Notes under the pieces: model-generated
Database searches by the model: none
The model's input: the letters and a program-made list of their open reading frames with translations, nothing else
Told to the model about the DNA's origin: nothing
Position numbers and translations under genes: made by a program
In this document: positions 5,515 through 56,896 of the stretch, piece after piece
Position numbering within the stretch: the stretch's first letter is position 1
How the letters are laid out: every line of letters starts with the position of its first letter
IMG/VR virus record: IMGVR_UViG_3300026274_000001
Reading direction: 5' to 3' (one strand)
Source of the DNA: a virus
Lineage: Duplodnaviria > Caudoviricetes
DNA: 64,000 bases

Positions 5515-5779
5515 ACAGCCAGAAAATCTGTATTCTTGGATGCAAGAAATGGTCGAACGCAAGCCAGCTTCATTATCAGTAGAAGCTCAAGCCGTTGGTT
5601 TGTCCATTGTGGAAATTCCGATAGAACAAGTTGTGGATAAGTGGACGGCAATATACAACTGGTGTTGTGAACACGGCGTCCCTCAACAAGATTTCCAAAT
5701 GTATTGGCATGAACGAATCTTAACCGGATTTTTCAAGTCCGTACAGTTGGCACTCATGTACAAGTTGCGATGGGGATGA
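5477..5779 (+). CDS. FKLxW-family protein
   Basis: NWCCEHG...FFKSVQLALMYKLRW. Confidence 0.8.
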   Translation: MKLMVNFLQQTIKQPENLYSWMQEMVERKPASLSVEAQAVGLSIVEIPIEQVVDKWTAIYNWCCEHGVPQQDFQMYWHERILTGFFKSVQLALMYKLRWG

Positions 5780-5780
5780 T

Positions 5781-6041
5781 ATGAACGTTCGAGAGTACTT
5801 TAGGACTGAAGTGTATAGTGTCAGTGAAAGTAATAAAGAACGAAAGCGATTGATGGAAAATGCGGGGTTTGTTCAATTACCGTGCCCGCAAAAGGTTAGA
5901 GTATCAAGCATCGCCAAATGGTGCGACGAAGTAATAGGACATGCGAATTTTGTTATTTGTCAGAACCTAATATTCTTCCAAGATGTCGATTGCGCCTTAA
6001 AATATAAAATCATGTTTGAACTCAATAGTAATTTGCAATAA
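5781..6041 (+). CDS. FKLxW-family protein
   Basis: KWCDEVIG...FFQDVDCALKYKIMF. Confidence 0.8.
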   Translation: MNVREYFRTEVYSVSESNKERKRLMENAGFVQLPCPQKVRVSSIAKWCDEVIGHANFVICQNLIFFQDVDCALKYKIMFELNSNLQ

Positions 6042-11402: not shown

Positions 11403-12665
11403 ATGCAAATCATCCAAGAAGAAAAACTCGATTTCTCATCAGTGCTCATCCGTCCGGAAAGAAGTACTCTTGGTAGTCGAAAAGATGTGGTTCTCAGCCG
11501 CACATTCCAATTCAAACATACCAACGCCAAGTGGACCGGAGTGCCGATTATTGCGGCAAACATGGACACAACTGGCACTATTGAAATGTTTAAGGCATTG
11601 AGTCAACACACGATGTTGACTGCGCTACACAAGCATCACGATGCTCAGACTCTGGTCGATCATTATATGGCTGGTACAGACCCAGAAAAGGTTGTTCAAC
11701 ATTTTAATGAACAAGCCGAATGGGCGAATAAGTTTGGTGACGATGCTGATGGCAAAGCAGATCGAGAAGATGACGACGAGCGTGGTATCGAACGTCACGA
11801 ACCATATCTGCATGGGGTACAGCGCCAATTTATTCAAACATTGGCAAGTAAATTCAGCTTCTACAGTATGGGCATTACCAATACTGATATGGAGAAGTTC
11901 CGCAATCTATACACTCACCTAAGCAATCTTTGCTATAACTTTGATCCTTCTCACTCTCATGGCACAGCTCATCAGGCGCATCCTATTCGCATGGTTTGTG
12001 TTGATGTGGCAAATGGTTACACTGACACCTTCGACACGTTTATCAAACAACTGCGGAAAAACTACCCGCACTTGATTATTATGGCTGGTAATGTAGTTAC
12101 GGCCAACATGACTGAGCAATTGATCATGTCAGGTGCTGATATTGTCAAGGTTGGTATTGGTCCTGGTAGCGTGTGTACCACCCGTAAGATGACTGGCGTT
12201 GGCTATCCCCAACTGTCAGCAGTTATTGAATGTGCATCCGCTGCTCACGGCGTGGGTGGTTTGGTTTGTAGCGATGGTGGATGCACGGTTCCCGGTGACG
12301 TCGCCAAAGCTTTTGGCGGAGGTGCCGACTTTGTGATGCTAGGTGGTATGTTGGCAGGTACGACCGAAGCTGCAGGTGCCATAGTAACCGACGATGACGG
12401 CAATATGTTTAAAGAGTTCTATGGCATGAGTTCTGCTACTGCCATGGGGAAGTATGCTGGTGGTGTAGCGAAGTATCGTGCTAGTGAAGGAAAGACCGTA
12501 CAGATCCCCTACAAGGGTCCTGTAGACACTGTGGTGCAAGATGTATTGGGTGGATTGCGAAGCACCTGTACCTATGTGGGCGCAAGCAAGCTTAAAGAAC
12601 TAACAAAACGAACTACTTTCATTAAAGTAGCAAATCAAATTAACAATGTATTTGGCAAATCATGA
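11403..12665 (+). CDS. guaC: GMP reductase (with two insertions)
   Basis: [58 protein letters not shown]. Confidence 0.95.
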
Positions 12666-15114: not shown

Positions 15115-15226
15115 TTTAAATCTCCGCATATTTGAGTAAAACCATTTTTACCCATACAATGCTTCTATTATTTACCTTTACTTAGCATATGGTAAAAAGA
15201 GGACTTTCCTCTGGTTTCAAAATACA

Positions 15227-15937
15227 ATGAAAACTAACGCATTTTTATATAAATGGACACAGCTTACCACTGGAAAATGGTATATAGGTTCAAGAACTAG
15301 AAAGGGTTGCCACCCAAATGATGGTTACTTGTGTTCTAGTAAAACAGTAAAACCGTTGATTGTATCCCATCCTGAAGAATGGAAAAGAGATATTCTGGTT
15401 GTTGGAAATCCGATTTATATTAGAGAAATAGAAACGACTTATTTGGTTAAGTTTGATGCGGCCAAGGATACTAATAGTTTTAATTTATCCAATTCTCATG
15501 GCAAATATTCTTTTACTGGACAAACTCATTCTGAAAAAACGAAATTAGCTATAAGTTTAGGTAATAAAGGAATAAAACGACCTGGTAGCGGTAATCGAAC
15601 CTCTAATAGAGGAAGTAGCGAAAATAGAGGAAATAAAAAATGTCACAAAGGCAAAAATAATCCTTGCTACGGTCGCACGGGCAAACTAAATCCGATGTTT
15701 AATAAAAAACATCCACCAGAAATGAAAAAGGTGCTATCCGATATCAAAATGGGTGGCAAGAATCCAAATTCTAAACGAGTACTAACACCCTTTGGCCATT
15801 ATGACACTCTGAAAGAAGCAGCACTTGCTTACAAAGTTTCGTCAAACACAATTAAGTATTGGATTACTACTAGTAGACTTGGATTCAGTTTTATAAATTT
15901 AGAAAAGAATAAAGAAGAACAGAGAAATGACAGATAA
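15227..15937 (+). CDS. Free-standing GIY-YIG homing endonuclease (Seg-like)
   Basis: FLYKW...WYIGSR, YLCSS; NUMOD3-like HSEKTKLAIS/GKNNP/NPMF repeats; C-terminal HTH. Confidence 0.85.
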   Translation: MKTNAFLYKWTQLTTGKWYIGSRTRKGCHPNDGYLCSSKTVKPLIVSHPEEWKRDILVVGNPIYIREIETTYLVKFDAAKDTNSFNLSNSHGKYSFTGQTHSEKTKLAISLGNKGIKRPGSGNRTSNRGSSENRGNKKCHKGKNNPCYGRTGKLNPMFNKKHPPEMKKVLSDIKMGGKNPNSKRVLTPFGHYDTLKEAALAYKVSSNTIKYWITTSRLGFSFINLEKNKEEQRNDR

Positions 15938-16697
15938 TACCAAGAAAACAGGTATGACAATTACAGTATCCGATGAATTGGTTGCTGACCTGAAGACCCT
16001 GCATGGCATTGATGCCGTTACCGAAATTGTTAATTCGGTAACATCAGAGCTTGAATTGGAATTAGAACAACCAAAAGAACCAGAACGTCGTGTGTTTTCT
16101 ATCGATGTTGGTAATATGACTCCTGAACAAGCCAAGGAAGCAATCACCGCAATTCAAAACAAATATGCCGCGCTTGATAGTGCATATAACCCCATGACTA
16201 TGGGCGAAGACTACTTTTTTGCACCTGCGCCAAAGAAGAAGTTTATGTCTACTAAGACATTTAATACTGATCGCGGATTGAGCTGCTGTTTCCGTCAATG
16301 GCGTGCCACCCATTCACATTGCTCAACACTGCACGGCTATTCAATCGGTGTGAAGTTTGTATTTGAATGTGAAGAACTGGACGAACGCAACTGGGTATTC
16401 GACTTTGGTGGTCTGAAGGATATTAAGAAATGGCTTGAGCATATGTTTGACCATACATGCTGTGTTGCAGAAGACGATCCATTGTTGGAACAATTTAAGG
16501 CATTTGCAGCAACTGGCGTTATGGACTTGCGGATTGTCCCAGGTGTAGGCTGTGAACGTTTTGCCGAAATGATTTTTGATCATGTCACTAAGGTGTTAGA
16601 TGATTCCCGCGATACTATGTTGAACAAGACTGCACGACTTAAGTCAGTCGAAGTCTTCGAACATGGTGCTAATTCGGCGATCGTTGAACGCGACTAA
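15927..16697 (+). CDS. queD: QueD (6-carboxy-tetrahydropterin synthase) with N-terminal capsid- and portal-like extension
   Basis: aa ~104-256: STKTF..RGLSCCFRQWRATHSHCSTLHGY, DFGGLK, FDH, GCERFAE, VFEHGANSA; aa 1-103 see findings. Confidence 0.85.
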   Translation: MTDNTKKTGMTITVSDELVADLKTLHGIDAVTEIVNSVTSELELELEQPKEPERRVFSIDVGNMTPEQAKEAITAIQNKYAALDSAYNPMTMGEDYFFAPAPKKKFMSTKTFNTDRGLSCCFRQWRATHSHCSTLHGYSIGVKFVFECEELDERNWVFDFGGLKDIKKWLEHMFDHTCCVAEDDPLLEQFKAFAATGVMDLRIVPGVGCERFAEMIFDHVTKVLDDSRDTMLNKTARLKSVEVFEHGANSAIVERD

Positions 16698-27945: not shown

Positions 27946-27993
27946 TCGTTAGGACTACATAAATACCTTTACAGGACTTTTAAGGGAATTTTG

Positions 27994-29256
27994 ATGTCAG
28001 ACGTCGACCAAAATCTACATTGCTCTTTTTGTAAAAAAGGAGCCCAAGAAGTAAAGAAGCTTATCGCTGGCCCAGAGTCAGTTCACATTTGTGACGAATG
28101 CGTATCATTGTGCTACAGTATTCTTAATGATACAGAACAGGCCTCATCTAAGCCAGCAGAAACGAAAACAGATTTGGGCGATATTCCAAGTCCGGCAAAA
28201 ATCAAAGGGTTCCTTGACCAATATGTTATTGGTCAAGATTACGCTAAGATGGTTATTTCAGTTGCCGTTCATAATCATTATATGCGTCTCCAAAACCCCA
28301 TCATTGATGAGGTTGAAATCGAGAAGAGTAATATCCTGGTGCTTGGTCCGACCGGGTCAGGTAAGACATTACTTGCGCAGTCAATTGCTCGTTGTTTGAG
28401 CGTTCCGTTTGCTATCGCGGACTCAACTGGCCTCACAGAAGCTGGTTATGTTGGTGATGACGTGGAAAGTATTGTCAGTCGTTTGTTACAGAACGCTGGT
28501 GGTGATGTGAAGAAAGCTGAACAGGGTATCATTTACCTTGACGAAATCGACAAGAAGAGCAAGAAGGATTCAGCTTCTGGCTCACGTGACGTTTCCGGCG
28601 AAGGGGTACAGCAAGCACTGCTGAAGATTATTGAAGGTTCTGATATTATGGTATCGGCGGGTGGCAAGAAAGGGCCAAATGCTGAACAAGTTAAAATCAA
28701 TACTAGAAATATTTTGTTTATCGTTGGTGGTGCATTCGTGGGTGTTGAGAAGGTAGTTGAGAAAGCTTTGAACAAAAACAAGGGTCTTGGATTTGGTGCA
28801 AACTTGAACGACCAGAAGATTGACATAAATGATTTACTGCGTAAAGTTGAACCATCACATTTGATGAACTACGGTATAATTCCTGAACTTATTGGCCGTT
28901 TGCCAGTTATTGCTCCTTTGCAAGAATTGTCAACAGATCAAATGGTTCGTGTATTGACTGAACCCAAAAATGCAATTGTCAAACAATTTGCAAAAATGTT
29001 TAAACTTGAAGGCGTCGAACTTGAAATCACACCAGAGGCCCTGGCTGAGATATCAGAAATCGCAATCAAGCGCAAGACTGGTGCTCGTGGATTACGTTCC
29101 ATCCTCGAAAATAACCTGATTGCAACACAATTTAAGTTGCCAGATCTAGTTGCTGCGGGCGCGACTAAAATTCTAGTAACTCTTGAAACAATCCGTGAAG
29201 GGAAAGAGCCGCAAATCCTTTATGGCAATGATAACAAATCAATTGCGACTCAATAA
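27994..29256 (+). CDS. clpX: ClpX AAA+ unfoldase
   Basis: C4 zinc finger CSFC..CDEC, GPTGSGKT, GYVG, DEIDK, RDVSGEGVQ, LGF loop, GARGLR. Confidence 0.97.
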   Translation: MSDVDQNLHCSFCKKGAQEVKKLIAGPESVHICDECVSLCYSILNDTEQASSKPAETKTDLGDIPSPAKIKGFLDQYVIGQDYAKMVISVAVHNHYMRLQNPIIDEVEIEKSNILVLGPTGSGKTLLAQSIARCLSVPFAIADSTGLTEAGYVGDDVESIVSRLLQNAGGDVKKAEQGIIYLDEIDKKSKKDSASGSRDVSGEGVQQALLKIIEGSDIMVSAGGKKGPNAEQVKINTRNILFIVGGAFVGVEKVVEKALNKNKGLGFGANLNDQKIDINDLLRKVEPSHLMNYGIIPELIGRLPVIAPLQELSTDQMVRVLTEPKNAIVKQFAKMFKLEGVELEITPEALAEISEIAIKRKTGARGLRSILENNLIATQFKLPDLVAAGATKILVTLETIREGKEPQILYGNDNKSIATQ

Positions 29257-29266
29257 CGAGGAAATA

Positions 29267-29803
29267 GTGACACCAAAATTGGAAATGAACGAGCGAATCA
29301 CAAGTCAAAAGGTTCGCTTGATTGACGCACAAGGCGTTCAAAAGGGCGTAGTCAGCATTCGAGACGCCCTGTATCAAGCACGACAAGCTAATCTGGATCT
29401 GGTGAAGATTGCAGAAGCAAACCCGCCCGTTTGTAAGATTGTCGACGCTGGTAAATACGTCTATGAGCAAGACAAGGCAAAGAAAGAACTTGCGAAGAAG
29501 CAGCGTGCAAATGCTGTGGAACTCAAAGAGGTTCAGTTGCGTCCAACCACCGACCTGAATGACATCAAAATCAAGGCACGTAAAGCACGTGAATTTTTGG
29601 AAGATGGCGATAAGGTGAAAGTTGTCATGCGTTTCCGTGGTCGAGAAATCACCCACAAAGAAGTTGGCCAAGCAGTCATCAACCAATTCATCAAAGAACT
29701 TGGTGAAGTGCGTATGGAGCAGCCTGTCACCCAGCAGGGCAACCAAATTACGGCGCTAATCGCCCCGGCAAAGAAAGAAGCCAAACAGGAAAAGGCAGCT
29801 TAA
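29267..29803 (+). CDS. infC: Translation initiation factor IF-3
   Basis: NERITSQKVRLID, PPVCKIVDAGKY, KEVQLRP..DLND..IK, GDKVKVVMRFRGRE; GAGGA then GTG. Confidence 0.95.
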   Translation: MTPKLEMNERITSQKVRLIDAQGVQKGVVSIRDALYQARQANLDLVKIAEANPPVCKIVDAGKYVYEQDKAKKELAKKQRANAVELKEVQLRPTTDLNDIKIKARKAREFLEDGDKVKVVMRFRGREITHKEVGQAVINQFIKELGEVRMEQPVTQQGNQITALIAPAKKEAKQEKAA

Positions 29804-35843: not shown

Positions 35844-37352
35844 ATGATAAAACACCCGAAAGGATATGCCGCGTTTACTCCGAGCATATCCCAGATGTAT
35901 GTATTGGCGCATGCTAAAGAATGGCCCCGTCAACCCCTACCTTTTGGTCCCTTGGATTTCCTAGATCCGAAAAATGCCGATCTCTTTCACCATCAGTTTG
36001 CTCTTTATTCTGCTGGCCACGCTTATTTGGATCCAGCAAAAAGCGATGAGAAAGAACCTATGGTGCAATTGCGCGACCGTTCAAAGACCGTAATGGTCGG
36101 TGATTCGGGTGGGTTCCAGGCAGCAACTGGCGTTCTAGACTTTGATTGGAAAAATCCACTCGGTGAGAAAGCAAATGAGCAGCGTCTCGCATTGATGAAT
36201 TGGCTTGAGCATACAGCTGATTACAGTATGATTCTAGACTGGCCAGCATGGGCGATTACTGCTGGTAAGGCACTATTGCCTGAACAATTATTCCACTTTG
36301 ACCCCTCGACTGGTGAACCAAGTCAAGACGTGTTCAGGAACTGTCTGAATGGTACAGTATGGAATAATGAATTCTTCATGAAGCATAGAACACCAGGTAA
36401 GACAAAGTTCCTGAATGTTTTGCAAGGTCGCAGCATTGAGGAAACTAATATTTGGTTTGATGCTGTTACACCATTCAGTGACACCAAGAAGTACGGCGAT
36501 CGCGCATTCGAGGGCTGGGCACTTGGAGGTTCAACGGGAGGCGATCCAGCGGTCACCATGCGTCTGCTGATTAAGTTGCGGGATAAGGGACTACTTGACG
36601 GTGACGATCGCTGGATTCACGTCCTAGGGCGTTCACGTCTTACAACTGCTGCTTACTTGACTTCAGTCAATCGCGCACTGACGGAATTTGTCAATCCAAA
36701 TATTCAAGTAAGTTATGATGCAGCCAGTGCATTTTTGTATGCAGTGAATGGCAATTATGTTGTAGATTGGCAAGTCAATGATAAGAGCTTGAATCTTATC
36801 AGTACTGAATTCCCAATGCATGAGAAATATATTGGTAGCGATACTCCATTCATCTATAACGGCGTGAAGTCAGATCGATTGCATTCAGCAGAACACTATA
36901 AGAGTCCAATCAGCAAGCAATTGAAGATGGGTGATTTTATTCTTCAAGCAGAACCTGATGCAAAGAAGAAATATCGTATGGATACTGCCAGCTATTTTTA
37001 CATCATGGCGCACAATGTTCAAATGCAAATTGCCGCTATCAATGATGTATCGGAAAAGATGGCTAGTCCTGATGCAGCAAATCACGTACCGACAATCTTT
37101 ATTGAATTTGATGAATTTGTACGTGAGTTGTTTGTGACCGAAAAGCCATTCGAATTAATTGATAAGCATGCAAATAAATTCAGTAACTTGATTTCTGGTG
37201 AGCGTCCTGGCGTTAGCGCAATGGAAGACCCTATTTTGTTCCCTAAAGAACTAAAGACCATGGAAGAGATTGAAGATCGAGTTCGACGCAAGAAACCAGT
37301 TAAGGTAGTTCCAAAGAAGATGGAAAGTTTGTTGAGTAACATTCTCAAGTAA
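35844..37352 (+). CDS. TGT/DpdA-fold guanine transglycosylase-like protein
   Basis: GDSGGFQ, LDWP, NVLQG, GWALGG, WIHVLG, SYDAAS, AHN; no CxCxxC zinc motif. Confidence 0.8.
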   Translation: MIKHPKGYAAFTPSISQMYVLAHAKEWPRQPLPFGPLDFLDPKNADLFHHQFALYSAGHAYLDPAKSDEKEPMVQLRDRSKTVMVGDSGGFQAATGVLDFDWKNPLGEKANEQRLALMNWLEHTADYSMILDWPAWAITAGKALLPEQLFHFDPSTGEPSQDVFRNCLNGTVWNNEFFMKHRTPGKTKFLNVLQGRSIEETNIWFDAVTPFSDTKKYGDRAFEGWALGGSTGGDPAVTMRLLIKLRDKGLLDGDDRWIHVLGRSRLTTAAYLTSVNRALTEFVNPNIQVSYDAASAFLYAVNGNYVVDWQVNDKSLNLISTEFPMHEKYIGSDTPFIYNGVKSDRLHSAEHYKSPISKQLKMGDFILQAEPDAKKKYRMDTASYFYIMAHNVQMQIAAINDVSEKMASPDAANHVPTIFIEFDEFVRELFVTEKPFELIDKHANKFSNLISGERPGVSAMEDPILFPKELKTMEEIEDRVRRKKPVKVVPKKMESLLSNILK

Positions 37353-37684
37353 TGTTCAAATTCAACATTACGAGCAAGGAGACAAACTACGGTGAATTAT
37401 CGTCGTGGTTTGCCGCCAGAGACGCCAAATATGAATTTGCTTTTATTGATGTCAATGATTGGATGCATCATAAAAGCTATCAGCTTTATGATATTGCCAT
37501 TTATGATGAGCATGTGGCAGTTGAATTTAGGCTCACGTTTGGTGCTAATGTGGGCGAATCTCACAGACATCGAGCACTTGATTTGGAAGCCGAAATGACT
37601 GCTGCACTTTCAGTTGACCTTGCTAACGCAATTGATGAAGAAATTTATCAAGAATTACTGGCTGCTTGTGCAAAGAAACAGTAA
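37352..37684 (+). CDS. FKLxW-family protein with C-terminal capsid-like helix
   Basis: DEHVAVEFRLTF followed by LDLEAEMTAALSVDLANAIDEEIYQEL. Confidence 0.8.
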   Translation: MFKFNITSKETNYGELSSWFAARDAKYEFAFIDVNDWMHHKSYQLYDIAIYDEHVAVEFRLTFGANVGESHRHRALDLEAEMTAALSVDLANAIDEEIYQELLAACAKKQ

Positions 37685-52037: not shown

Positions 52038-53258
52038 TTACTGCTTTTGATCCAATATCATCTTGCAAGCATCAAGCATGAATGCGTGATCACTAAAATG
52101 ACCGTCATACATACCGCTGTTGAACCAAGCGTACTTCATAGACAACAGCATGGTGCCCATTTCCTTGCCAGGCTGCATACCAAGCTCCTTCAAGTCATCA
52201 CCAGTAATAGGAAACACTGGGACGTCCCATTGCTTGATTTGATCTGCAACTGCAACTCGGCCAAGCATCAATGCTGCTTCCACTGCATAGTCAACTGAAG
52301 CACCTTGCATAACGATGCTTTCTTTGAGACGTTGAACAAGAACAGCATCATCCTTAGACTTGTAGTCCCTGAACTTCACCAAGTATTGCATCAAACGCGT
52401 GTCCTTGGTGCTGATCTTCAACCGCTTACCAAAGTCTGCGACTTGTTCCGTAGTTTTGAACAACGTGGTAAACACCGTTGCTGCATTCTTCGTATGTGCA
52501 ACAGCAACCTTCATTGCTGCCAAACGTGTATCAGTGGGTTGTGGCAAGTCGCTGGGCATCAATACATTGCACTGTGACATTACTTCATAAACGGCAGGGG
52601 CGGACGGGTGCGTCATCATCTTACTGACTTCCTGCCACACACGCTCACTAGATACTTGCCTCAAGCCTTCAGCATATTTTGTGATAGCTGCAATCTGCGT
52701 GACATCGTATGCACCTTTGCTGAAACGACCTGAAAATCTAAAGAACCGCAAAATGCGCAAGTAGTCTTCTTGAATGCGCAAAGCAGGGTCACCAACAAAG
52801 CGCACAACTCCAGCCACCAAATCCTTCTGGCCTTCGTACGGATCGTCCAACACGCCGTCAAATGTCATCGACATCGCATTGATAGTCAAGTCACGCCGAG
52901 CCAAATCCTCGTACCACAAACGCGTGAATGTGACCTTTGCATGACGACCATCCGTCTCCGTATCGTAGCGCAAGCTGGTGATTTCGTATGTTTCACCATT
53001 GATGATTACCGAAATAGTACCGTGATCAATTCCGGTTGGCTCGAACCGAATGCCAGCCTTAGTATAGATACGAATAGCTTCATCAGGAAATGCGTCAGTG
53101 CAGAGGTCGATATCCTTGGGTGTTTGATCGCAGAGAATATCACGAACAGCACCACCTACGATTCGAATATCGAATCCGTCGGCCTGAAACAAGGCGCGTA
53201 ATGCGAGCAAATCAGCATTAACTACTTGATCAAGTATTTTGGTATGCATTGTGTTCAT
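52038..53258 (-). CDS. cca: Class II CCA-adding tRNA nucleotidyltransferase
   Basis: VGGAVRD, KDIDL, GIDHGT, EITSLR, DGRHA, DLARRDLTINAM, EDYLRILR, SERVWQE. Confidence 0.92.
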   Translation of the reverse strand: MNTMHTKILDQVVNADLLALRALFQADGFDIRIVGGAVRDILCDQTPKDIDLCTDAFPDEAIRIYTKAGIRFEPTGIDHGTISVIINGETYEITSLRYDTETDGRHAKVTFTRLWYEDLARRDLTINAMSMTFDGVLDDPYEGQKDLVAGVVRFVGDPALRIQEDYLRILRFFRFSGRFSKGAYDVTQIAAITKYAEGLRQVSSERVWQEVSKMMTHPSAPAVYEVMSQCNVLMPSDLPQPTDTRLAAMKVAVAHTKNAATVFTTLFKTTEQVADFGKRLKISTKDTRLMQYLVKFRDYKSKDDAVLVQRLKESIVMQGASVDYAVEAALMLGRVAVADQIKQWDVPVFPITGDDLKELGMQPGKEMGTMLLSMKYAWFNSGMYDGHFSDHAFMLDACKMILDQKQ

Positions 53259-55603: not shown

Positions 55604-56896
55604 TTATTTCGTGTTATTCAATCTGCGCAACTTGCGTACCGCATCGACAACTCCCGTTGTCGTTTGTTCCTTCACCCCTCGATGACGAATCGTTGCTTCA
55701 AAGTTCGCCATTTCCTTGTCACCAATAATGACAACGGCTGGAACACTTTTACCCAAGAAACCTTTCATTCGTTTGTTGAAGTGCGACGGATCTGAGTTGA
55801 TCTCAACTCGTATGCCTTCACCTTCCAATTGCTCAAGTACATTCTTGGCAAAGCGTAAATGATCCGCACCAACAGGAACAATACCCACTTGCAAGGGGCA
55901 CAACCAGAATGGTAGTTTCCCTTCATGATGTTCTAATAGAATGCCCATAAAGCGTTCCACAGAGCCTAGGATCGCCCGGTGCAGCATAACTGGATGCGCG
56001 CTTGTACCTTCCGTCGTGATGTATTGGGCCCCCAACCGTTCAGGTAGAACTAGATCGAGTTGCAGCGTTCCACATTGCCATTGACGCCCACGTTTATCCG
56101 TTAGGGTGAATTCAAGCTTGGGACCATAGAATGCACCTTCGCCTGGTTGCAGTTCAACTACCAAGCCGGCGGCGATCGCAGCATCAGCTAACCCCTTTTC
56201 AGCTAGATCCCAAGTTGCATCGGTGCCTGCTCGCTTTTCTGGTCGTGTTGACAGCTTAACTGATACGTCATGGAAGCCGAAGTCTCGGTAAACATCCAAC
56301 AGCAGCTTGCAGAACTTCACACTTTCTTCATTGATTTGTTCTTCAGTACAGAAAATATGAGCGTCGTCTTGTGTGAAGGCACGCACCCGCATTAAGCCTA
56401 GAAGGGAACCTGATGGTTCATTACGGTGACACGCACCGAATTCAGCTAAGCGCATGGGAAGCTGCTTATATGATACTAAGCCATGATTGAAAATCTGCAC
56501 ATGGCCGGGGCAATTCATTGGCTTGAGCGCTAGGTACTTTACATCTGATGCGCCACAGTTGCAATCAAGGCTGCTTTGCGATTCCCAGGAAAAACAATTT
56601 TCCTTATGATTGTGATCTGCATCTTGTTCAGTGACAAACATGTTTTCACGATACTTGTCCCAATGGCCAGACTTTTCCCACAATGAACGATCCATCAGCT
56701 GGGGAGTTTTTACTTCCTGGTAGCCATCTTTACGAACTTTGTCTCGAATATATTCTTCAATAGTACGGAACAACGTGTAGCCGTTTGGATGCCAAAATAC
56801 GCTCCCAATTGCTTCTTCCTGTATATGAAAGAGATCCAAGTCTTTGCCAATCTGGCGGTGATCTCCCGCTTCTAAATCATTCACATTAGTCTCCAT
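55604..56896 (-). CDS. thrS: Threonyl-tRNA synthetase lacking N-terminal TGS/editing domains
   Basis: DHRQIGK, SGHWDKY, KPMNCPGH, GLMRVRAFTQDDAH, GAFYGPK, WQCGTLQLD, MLHRAILGS. Confidence 0.96.
   Translation of the reverse strand: METNVNDLEAGDHRQIGKDLDLFHIQEEAIGSVFWHPNGYTLFRTIEEYIRDKVRKDGYQEVKTPQLMDRSLWEKSGHWDKYRENMFVTEQDADHNHKENCFSWESQSSLDCNCGASDVKYLALKPMNCPGHVQIFNHGLVSYKQLPMRLAEFGACHRNEPSGSLLGLMRVRAFTQDDAHIFCTEEQINEESVKFCKLLLDVYRDFGFHDVSVKLSTRPEKRAGTDATWDLAEKGLADAAIAAGLVVELQPGEGAFYGPKLEFTLTDKRGRQWQCGTLQLDLVLPERLGAQYITTEGTSAHPVMLHRAILGSVERFMGILLEHHEGKLPFWLCPLQVGIVPVGADHLRFAKNVLEQLEGEGIRVEINSDPSHFNKRMKGFLGKSVPAVVIIGDKEMANFEATIRHRGVKEQTTTGVVDAVRKLRRLNNTK

Follow-up and report, generated by a model that had tools for sequence, protein, structure and literature searches.

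A QueD-like enzyme of a giant T4-superfamily phage with an N-terminal extension resembling portal clip and major capsid protein sequences

Background

The clip domain of the phage T4 portal protein gp20 (residues 279–358) is exposed outside the capsid, where it docks the terminase gp17 and later the neck, and residues N291, M292, R295 and K296 at its tip touch gp17 (PMC4493910). A 24-residue peptide of this domain (288–311) binds gp17 and inhibits packaging, and is the experimental precedent for a short clip-derived piece that acts alone (PMC4493910). Here, we describe a gene found in a 64-kb stretch of DNA (64,000 nucleotides; IMG/VR record IMGVR_UViG_3300026274_000001; hereafter called the window) of an uncultured jumbo phage, a giant soil phage. 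Its product, P0001 (256 amino acids (aa); positions 15927..16697, + strand), is by sequence a genuine three-part protein, in which a stretch like that of the major capsid protein (MCP), a copy of the portal clip and a QueD-like enzyme are predicted to follow one another. The closest known parallel on the capsid side is the Gol peptide of the T4 MCP gp23, a short conserved stretch that has an activity outside the capsid, in that by itself it binds EF-Tu and activates the Lit protease. However, the Gol region differs from the source of the P0001 extension (T4 residues 267–304, in the P-domain), and it is part of the full-length MCP without a separate gene.

Two cultured phages are nearest to the window by the large subunit of the topoisomerase: Sinorhizobium phage Phosso, of 469 kb, with 62% identity, and Agrobacterium phage Atu_ph07, of 490 kb, with 54%. 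Together with the IMG/VR contig G004, they served as the clade members in comparisons of portal, MCP and terminase. A first-pass annotation of the window, made from the letters alone, had described the open reading frame (ORF) 15927–16697 (+) of 256 aa and knew of no description of such a fusion. The ORF is present as it was described. Searches of the literature on fusions of QueD with a portal and on decoys of portal or capsid brought up nothing relevant, nor was any description of virion-protein fragments used outside the virion found in the literature searched. Judged from sequence comparisons, P0001 is a known (QueD-like) enzyme family carrying an undescribed module that appears to be derived from virion proteins.

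Portal and capsid pieces of the extension

The portal clip-like segment of P0001 (aa 50–105; 16074..16241, +) is made up of strand 1 (RRVFSIDVG), the tip GNM, helix alpha6, a shortened loop and strand 2 (AYNPMTMGEDYFF). Pfam Portal_T4 (PF07230) matches aa 52–112 at profile positions 204–274 (E-value = 4e-8; 32.8 bits against a gathering score of 22.9), and nine of ten family members match the same profile, the best of them with an E-value of 6.5e-11. When a profile of the extension was compared with the PDB, residues 277–339 of T4 gp20 were matched (E-value = 8e-7), with G62-N63-M64 of P0001 aligned to G290-N291-M292 of T4. The first-pass annotation had drawn a parallel between aa 52–98 and the clip of the T4-family gp20, with an internal loop deleted, and both parts of this claim held: the clip-domain strand 1, helix alpha6 and strand 2 are all present in the extension by profile and alignment, and the loop from helix alpha6 to strand 2 is shortened in the alignment, to an extent that varies by lineage. 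The two strands (RRVF.IDVG and AYNP..M.EDYFF) are nearly portal-like and the helix is divergent, whereas the third clip strand and the channel loop (GRGS.VETLPGG) are replaced in all fusions by the QueD N-terminus, KKKF(M/L)STKTF.

The real portals of the clade are 575–584 aa long and match Portal_T4 at positions 1–433 or 2–433, whereas P0001, in which only positions 204–274 are represented, is without the full crown-wing-stem-clip architecture of about 430 profile positions. This situation is different from that of the T4 portal in several ways: of the roughly 575 aa of a portal the extension holds only about 55, it is without the third strand and the channel loop and has a shorter loop, the basic tip R295/K296 is changed to E/D-Q, and the whole forms part of an enzyme whose gene lies outside the head module; what is homologous to the T4 gp20 clip is strand 1, the tip GNM, helix alpha6 and strand 2. 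The G004 portal matches aa 50–105 of P0001 (BLASTP E-value = 7e-15, 41% identity), and the extension profile scores the portal of Phosso at 45.9 bits, that of Atu_ph07 at 35.9 and that of T4 at about 31. These graded scores suggest that the source of the clip piece was the portal gene of this phage lineage itself.

The segment in front of it (aa 13–48; 15963..16070, +) consists of a strand and turn with LHGIDA, followed by an acidic helix, and bears a weak but specific resemblance to the P-domain turn and spine helix of the MCP (gp23). Its conserved core is LHGIDA..E, in which G27, I28 and E33 are invariant in nine extensions. When aa 8–50 were searched by tblastn against phage DNA (2.3 Gb), 623 matches were obtained (best E-value = 0.009, 50% identity over 34 aa), and all 25 of the 25 sampled rows with telling feature names, spread over the ranking, were gp23/gp24 genes. 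An hhalign comparison of the nine extension N-termini with the clade MCP gave a single match (17–48 to 185–216; E-value = 1.4e-4, probability 52%), which falls at the equivalent place. Pfam Gp23 (PF07068) matches the extensions at profile positions 153–187 with E-values of 0.005–0.02 and 14.8–16.8 bits, under the cut-off of 24.4, and phmmer matched P0001 to T4 gp23 residues 267–304 with an E-value of 0.6. The gp23 parallel, which had been proposed for aa 17–42, thus stood as far as the specific gp23/gp24 matches are concerned, but not at the level of the Pfam gathering score or of phmmer. A lack of any profile match to gp20 or gp23 had been named beforehand as a point against the fusion; such matches exist. 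The copied stretch contains the equivalents of T4 gp23 His282 and Met284, which belong to the P-domain and lie at the portal-capsid interface (PMC7136217). The window contains the extension only once.

The enzyme half

The remaining part of P0001 (aa 104–256; 16236..16694, +) is a QueD-like T-fold enzyme domain of the PTPS family. Pfam PTPS (PF01242) matches aa 118–254 (E-value = 6e-17; 62.1 bits against a cut-off of 22.4) and PHROG 2389 (phrog_2389, 'QueD-like') matches aa 104–255 (E-value = 2e-40), in agreement with the earlier description of a QueD domain behind about 103 extra residues. Against the NCBIfam equivalog TIGR03367, which represents bona fide QueD, P0001 scores 39 bits, under the cut-off of 89.25, and it is therefore classed as a QueD-like member of the PTPS family rather than as a proven CPH4 synthase. 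The motif reads C132-STL-H136-G-Y138, and all 17 sequences compared have H129, H131, D175 and H176; relative to the active site of E. coli QueD, with its Cys-x3-His-Gly-His zinc/catalytic motif and its Asp-His pair, Y138 presumably replaces the last His of the motif.

Stand-alone QueD-like proteins of cultured phages (PF01242, phrog_2389), which are 6-pyruvoyl-tetrahydropterin / 6-carboxytetrahydropterin synthases by family, resemble aa 100–255 of P0001, many of them with 49–56% identity. Unlike the fusion, however, none of the 108 matches to these records reaches the first 100 residues of P0001, and among the best 120 of 5,174 metagenomic homologues the extension is confined to a dozen members of the clade. 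The stand-alone QueD-like gene of Phosso (147 aa) shares with the fusion gene a neighbour, Smr, and a region near topoisomerase II, but is without the extension, and thus the extension either arose within the clade or was lost in Phosso.

Conservation of the fusion and its upstream region

The extension is present in ten further proteins (54–99% identity over the aligned stretch), two of which are truncated gene calls, and the P0001 sequence itself is identical on 13 contigs, the 10 places listed being 10 different samples. In the first-pass annotation, an extension that is absent or frameshifted in close relatives was to count against the fusion. Instead, at least eight diverged relatives from the Atu_ph07/Phosso-like jumbo phages (those with the fusion show 54–77% identity over the aligned stretch) keep it in frame at the same syntenic site. 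The order of a Mtd_N/head-fibre-like gene, then the fusion, then Bax1-I is the same in all seven of the relatives' loci examined, and Smr lies near the fusion wherever the relative's contig reaches that far. The gene call of one relative, P0003 (281 aa; L011:6001-6087), begins 29 codons before the conserved Met, over the hairpin of the 5' untranslated region (UTR), and its extra N-terminal residues are probably a mis-called start.

Directly upstream in the window lies a Seg-like free-standing homing endonuclease of the GIY-YIG type, P0002 (15227..15937, +), the stop codon of which overlaps codons 3–4 of the fusion. It matches the DNA-binding motif NUMOD3 in three stretches (E-value = 1.7e-6) and phrog_314 (E-value = 1e-19), and is 28–39% identical to Seg-like endonucleases of T4-like phages, these relatives occupying unrelated sites. 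The insertion is found in the window lineage only: the endonuclease is absent at L011, L012, L014, L137, L138, L139 and L052, the seven loci examined, which represent six diverged relatives with the fusion in its usual place and G004. When window positions 15191–15209 and 15912–15935 were compared with the 5' UTRs of L011, L012, L137, L138 and L139, both junctions were recognisable against the uninterrupted sequences. The insertion begins inside a conserved hairpin (AAGAGG..CCTCTT), downstream of the fusion gene's promoter and upstream of its ribosome-binding site; the hairpin is kept in all relatives, to which the ribosome-binding region is also common, and its remnant in the window is at 15198..15212 (+). 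The sigma-70-like promoter TTGAGT-N17-TACAAT (15132..15160, +), which would drive the fusion gene and here also the endonuclease, is identical or near-identical upstream of the fusion in L011, L012 and L137 and occurs as variants in L014 and L052; it appears to be of an early type, the timing of which we infer.

These comparisons bear on the possibility that the three-part protein is an artefact, with a stand-alone QueD translated from Met107 and an upstream frame that is untranslated and was brought by the homing endonuclease. Such a reading is invited by the purine-rich AAGAAGAAG that precedes Met107 in the window lineage and by the endonuclease abutting the fusion ORF. However, the endonuclease is absent from all other extension-bearing lineages, the first Met is conserved among the relatives together with the upstream Shine-Dalgarno region, and in seven relatives the codon at Met107 is one for Leu (CTG, TTG, CTT or CTC; five use CTG, CTT or CTC). 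Therefore internal initiation is not the rule, and translation from Met107, which the first-pass annotation had listed as an argument against the fusion, finds a Leu at that position in these seven relatives. Endonuclease debris with an internal start at Met107 was rejected on the basis of the Leu codons and the endonuclease-free loci, and we consider an artefact extremely improbable. Of the earlier interpretation, the in-frame pieces of two virion genes on a QueD-like T-fold enzyme were retained, whereas its option of recombination debris beside a homing endonuclease was discarded, because the fusion is kept without the endonuclease in the relatives and the endonuclease is specific to one lineage.

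The extension could also be a neutral remnant of an old recombination accident, in which the start codon was moved and scraps of portal and MCP are tolerated and slowly decay. In keeping with this, the identity among extensions is low (26–78%), indels are many, and either piece was lost independently: the MCP piece is missing from P0006 and the clip piece from P0011 of G004, though not from P0013, a close relative of P0011. P0001 and P0003 are 48% identical in the extension and 94% in the enzyme. However, the frame of about 100 codons is open in eight of eight lineages, with no stop or frameshift, despite saturated synonymous sites (pS = 0.54–0.9). Moreover, pN (0.12–0.52) is far under pS, and the motif cores are nearly invariant (G27, I28, E33, R54, V56, F57, D60, Y96 and F97). 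Omega is put at about 0.15–0.3 for the extension; in the least saturated pairs it is 0.14–0.19 for the extension and about 0.02–0.03 for the enzyme where computable (one such pair), though dN/dS is not quantitative here because dS is saturated in nearly all pairs. A neutral remnant thus seems improbable, and the pattern indicates that the extension is maintained by selection, under relaxed purifying selection. In an AlphaFold2 model of P0001 (17 sequences; mean pLDDT 62), the block means of the extension are 36–67 and no strands are seen before residue 104.

Virion-protein fragments elsewhere

A profile search against 1.8 billion representative proteins gave 318 matches. Most are portals; small non-portal proteins make up at least 15 clusters, in which one to three clip motifs are present. 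All ten of the ten small clip proteins that were scanned exceed the Pfam Portal_T4 gathering score, and eight of the ten match phrog_23805 or phrog_12349 (function unassigned). Two or three tandem motifs are carried by P0124, P0125, P0127, P0133, P0158, P0174, P0189, P0222, P0240 and P0251. The small proteins have the strand-tip-helix motif VFYIDVGxMP..A..Y in common with the extension, but they differ from the fusion in their tandem repeats and in having no enzyme and, again unlike the fusion, they often contain all three strands (as judged by eye) and a basic residue in the helix tip. P0185 and P0202 are surrounded by small unannotated genes, outside any recognisable head module, and the C-terminal tails of P0158, P0185 and P0202 are rich in lysine. 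A tblastn search of the tandem-clip protein P0127 against cultured phages gave no match.

Fragments of the MCP also occur, in part together with the clip. In P0185, an MCP N-terminal piece is joined to a clip motif, and on L136, an unrelated T4-like contig, a gene for a 107-aa MCP fragment (5529–5852) adjoins a triple-clip gene. The MCP N-terminal motif ..RRVMP..IA..I.GVQPM..P is present in small ORFs of G004 (L134:1483-2013, 176 aa) and Phosso (L048:1456, 206 aa) and in the 107-aa gene of L136; this motif is probably the counterpart of the Gol-peptide region of T4. In Phosso, W01:114103-114294 (L049), a minus-strand ORF of 145 aa matches the Gp23 profile at 305–354 (E-value = 6.6e-6) and is an MCP fragment outside the capsid gene. 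Intein-splicing domains (PF14890) occur in several clade-related portals (P0330, P0346, P0360 and P0386); mobile elements therefore target portal genes, which offers a possible route for the copying of portal fragments.

A second graft was found in the window itself. The small protein P0392 (37352–37684) carries in its tail (aa 75–104; 37574..37663, +) a 30-aa copy of the spine helix 195–224 of the clade MCP (BLASTP E-value = 2e-5, 43% identity), and this tail is the sole site matched when the clade MCPs are searched against the window by tblastn. P0392 is a member of an expanded FKLxW family with dozens of copies in the window, and the graft is absent from the orthologous region of G004. The P0392 start overlaps the stop of a gene for a 502-aa protein (35844..37352, +), a candidate DpdA-like DNA or tRNA transglycosylase. 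This protein gave no HMM matches, and its large family of 4,401 homologues is unannotated and without a Pfam entry. The motif GDSGGFQ is invariant in a 49-sequence alignment, and the AlphaFold2 model (pLDDT 86) was related by Foldseek to tRNA-guanine transglycosylases (TGT; probability 1.00, E-value = 3e-8, TM 0.40–0.56). As for other enzymes of the pathway, G004 and Phosso both have FolE (GTP cyclohydrolase I). QueC is missing from Phosso, the genome of which is complete, and neither the incomplete record of G004 nor Atu_ph07 yielded it. The phage-encoded 7-deazaguanine pathway, if any, would thus be incomplete or would include unrecognised enzymes.

Possible functions

Three readings of the extension were ranked, in the order of mimicry or decoy, tether and plain structural reuse. 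The first, to which we give a probability of roughly 0.3, takes the extension as a putative mimicry or decoy module, a sponge for a portal or capsid sensor or for an assembly or packaging protein of a rival phage. In a single subclade of the Atu_ph07/Phosso-like jumbo phages, a QueD-like T-fold enzyme acquired some 100 aa at its N-terminus. The two pieces, as fold fragments rather than autonomous domains, would most likely form an interaction module, displayed in several copies on a trimer-based T-fold oligomer, as is assumed from the generally multimeric nature of T-fold enzymes. The fusion would be made before the real portal and MCP appear, and the extension would titrate a factor that recognises conserved surfaces of the unassembled portal or MCP, while the enzyme half would probably remain a source of pterin or 7-deazaguanine precursor for the TGT-like enzyme encoded 19 kb away. 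Mimicry and tether are jointly favoured because the pieces are incomplete fold fragments, because the same two parents recur as fragments, also together, because either piece behaves as a dispensable accessory, and because a clip peptide is known to act alone. The decoy is also supported by the conservation of an early-type promoter upstream of the fusion, and in its favour we count that the portal and MCP are known targets of the host sensors Avs4, SpbK and Avs7; to our knowledge, these two are the virion proteins most often recognised by bacterial immune sensors. Several points weigh against a decoy. The conserved residues of the extension are the fold-core of the clip strands and are equally expected under structural reuse. 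The tip is E/D-Q in the extensions, as against R295 K296 in T4 and VM, HK, TK or HL in the portals of the clade, and therefore the outer surface of the portal is not faithfully copied. The MCP-like piece has little similarity to the MCP of the clade itself, with the 52% of hhalign and no match by BLASTP. In addition, a bound fragment could trigger, rather than block, a sensor that is activated by binding, and a decoy gives no reason for a QueD-like enzyme to be the carrier.

Instead of a decoy, the copies of clip and MCP may serve as a tether that docks the enzyme on the phage's own terminase, neck, portal or prohead, either by engaging the proteins that the real clip binds or by complementing portal or MCP subunits with a strand, so that 7-deazaguanine enzymes are coupled to packaging or the enzyme is loaded into the head as cargo. 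We regard this as possible but doubtful. The clip of T4 docks gp17 and later the neck, peptide 288–311 binds gp17 (PMC4493910), and GNM of P0001 is aligned to the T4 tip; His282 and Met284 of T4 gp23, in the copied stretch, touch the portal (PMC7136217). However, the tip equivalents of R295 and K296 are acidic or polar in all extensions, unlike those of the clade portals, and an enzyme of an early soluble step has no obvious gain from channelling. The second MCP-helix graft, on P0392, the start of which overlaps the stop of the TGT-fold gene, would link both grafts to one pathway, but the dozens of copies of the P0392 family in the window mean that this adjacency may be due to chance, the graft is not shared by G004, and QueC is lacking in Phosso, a complete genome, and did not turn up in the incomplete record of G004. 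The free tandem-clip proteins, which are without cargo, would also be left unexplained. Plain recycling, which we hold to be doubtful to a similar degree, would make of a portal scrap and an MCP-like helix a generic N-terminal extension, exapted for oligomer stabilisation, solubility, regulation of the enzyme or contact with another enzyme of the pathway, and unrelated to the binding of portal or MCP. It agrees with the conserved positions, which are those that the strands themselves require, with the surface tip, which has a signature of its own unlike that of portals, and with an amino-acid evolution about ten times that of the enzyme and the loss of either piece in some relatives. It does not agree with pieces that are incomplete fold fragments and are left unfolded by AlphaFold2, nor with the recurrence of the same two parents as fragments in unrelated small proteins, where they adjoin each other. 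Stand-alone QueD-like enzymes of the same family, including the syntenic one of Phosso, also manage without the extension.

If the decoy reading is extended beyond P0001, giant T4-superfamily phages might make early 'virion-epitope display' proteins, in which those surface pieces of the portal (the clip) and MCP that are most conserved are placed on soluble multimeric carriers as decoys or sponges, the carriers being a QueD-like enzyme here and tandem mini-proteins elsewhere; we consider so general a system unlikely. If it exists, such display would blunt host pattern-recognition immunity directed against the portal and capsid, or poison the assembly and packaging of rival phages, and would represent a new class of counter-defence by self-mimicry. 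If the tether is correct instead, hypermodification of DNA would be linked to packaging. The construct is compact and testable, with about 100 residues, two separable modules and natural variants that are without one or the other. A copying of the RelA/SpoT-inhibiting activity of the T7 portal by the clip piece was also considered and was unsupported; deletion of the T7 clip enhances binding (PMC13483052).

Genome setting

The fusion gene is placed among genes for replication and nucleotide metabolism, outside the head module, and topoisomerase II subunits and RNase H are among the genes of the window. The window also encodes GMP reductase (11403–12665), ClpX (27991–29256), IF3 (29183–29803), a CCA-adding enzyme (52038–53258) and a class II aminoacyl-tRNA synthetase (55604–56896), a set that is typical of Atu_ph07-like jumbo phages.

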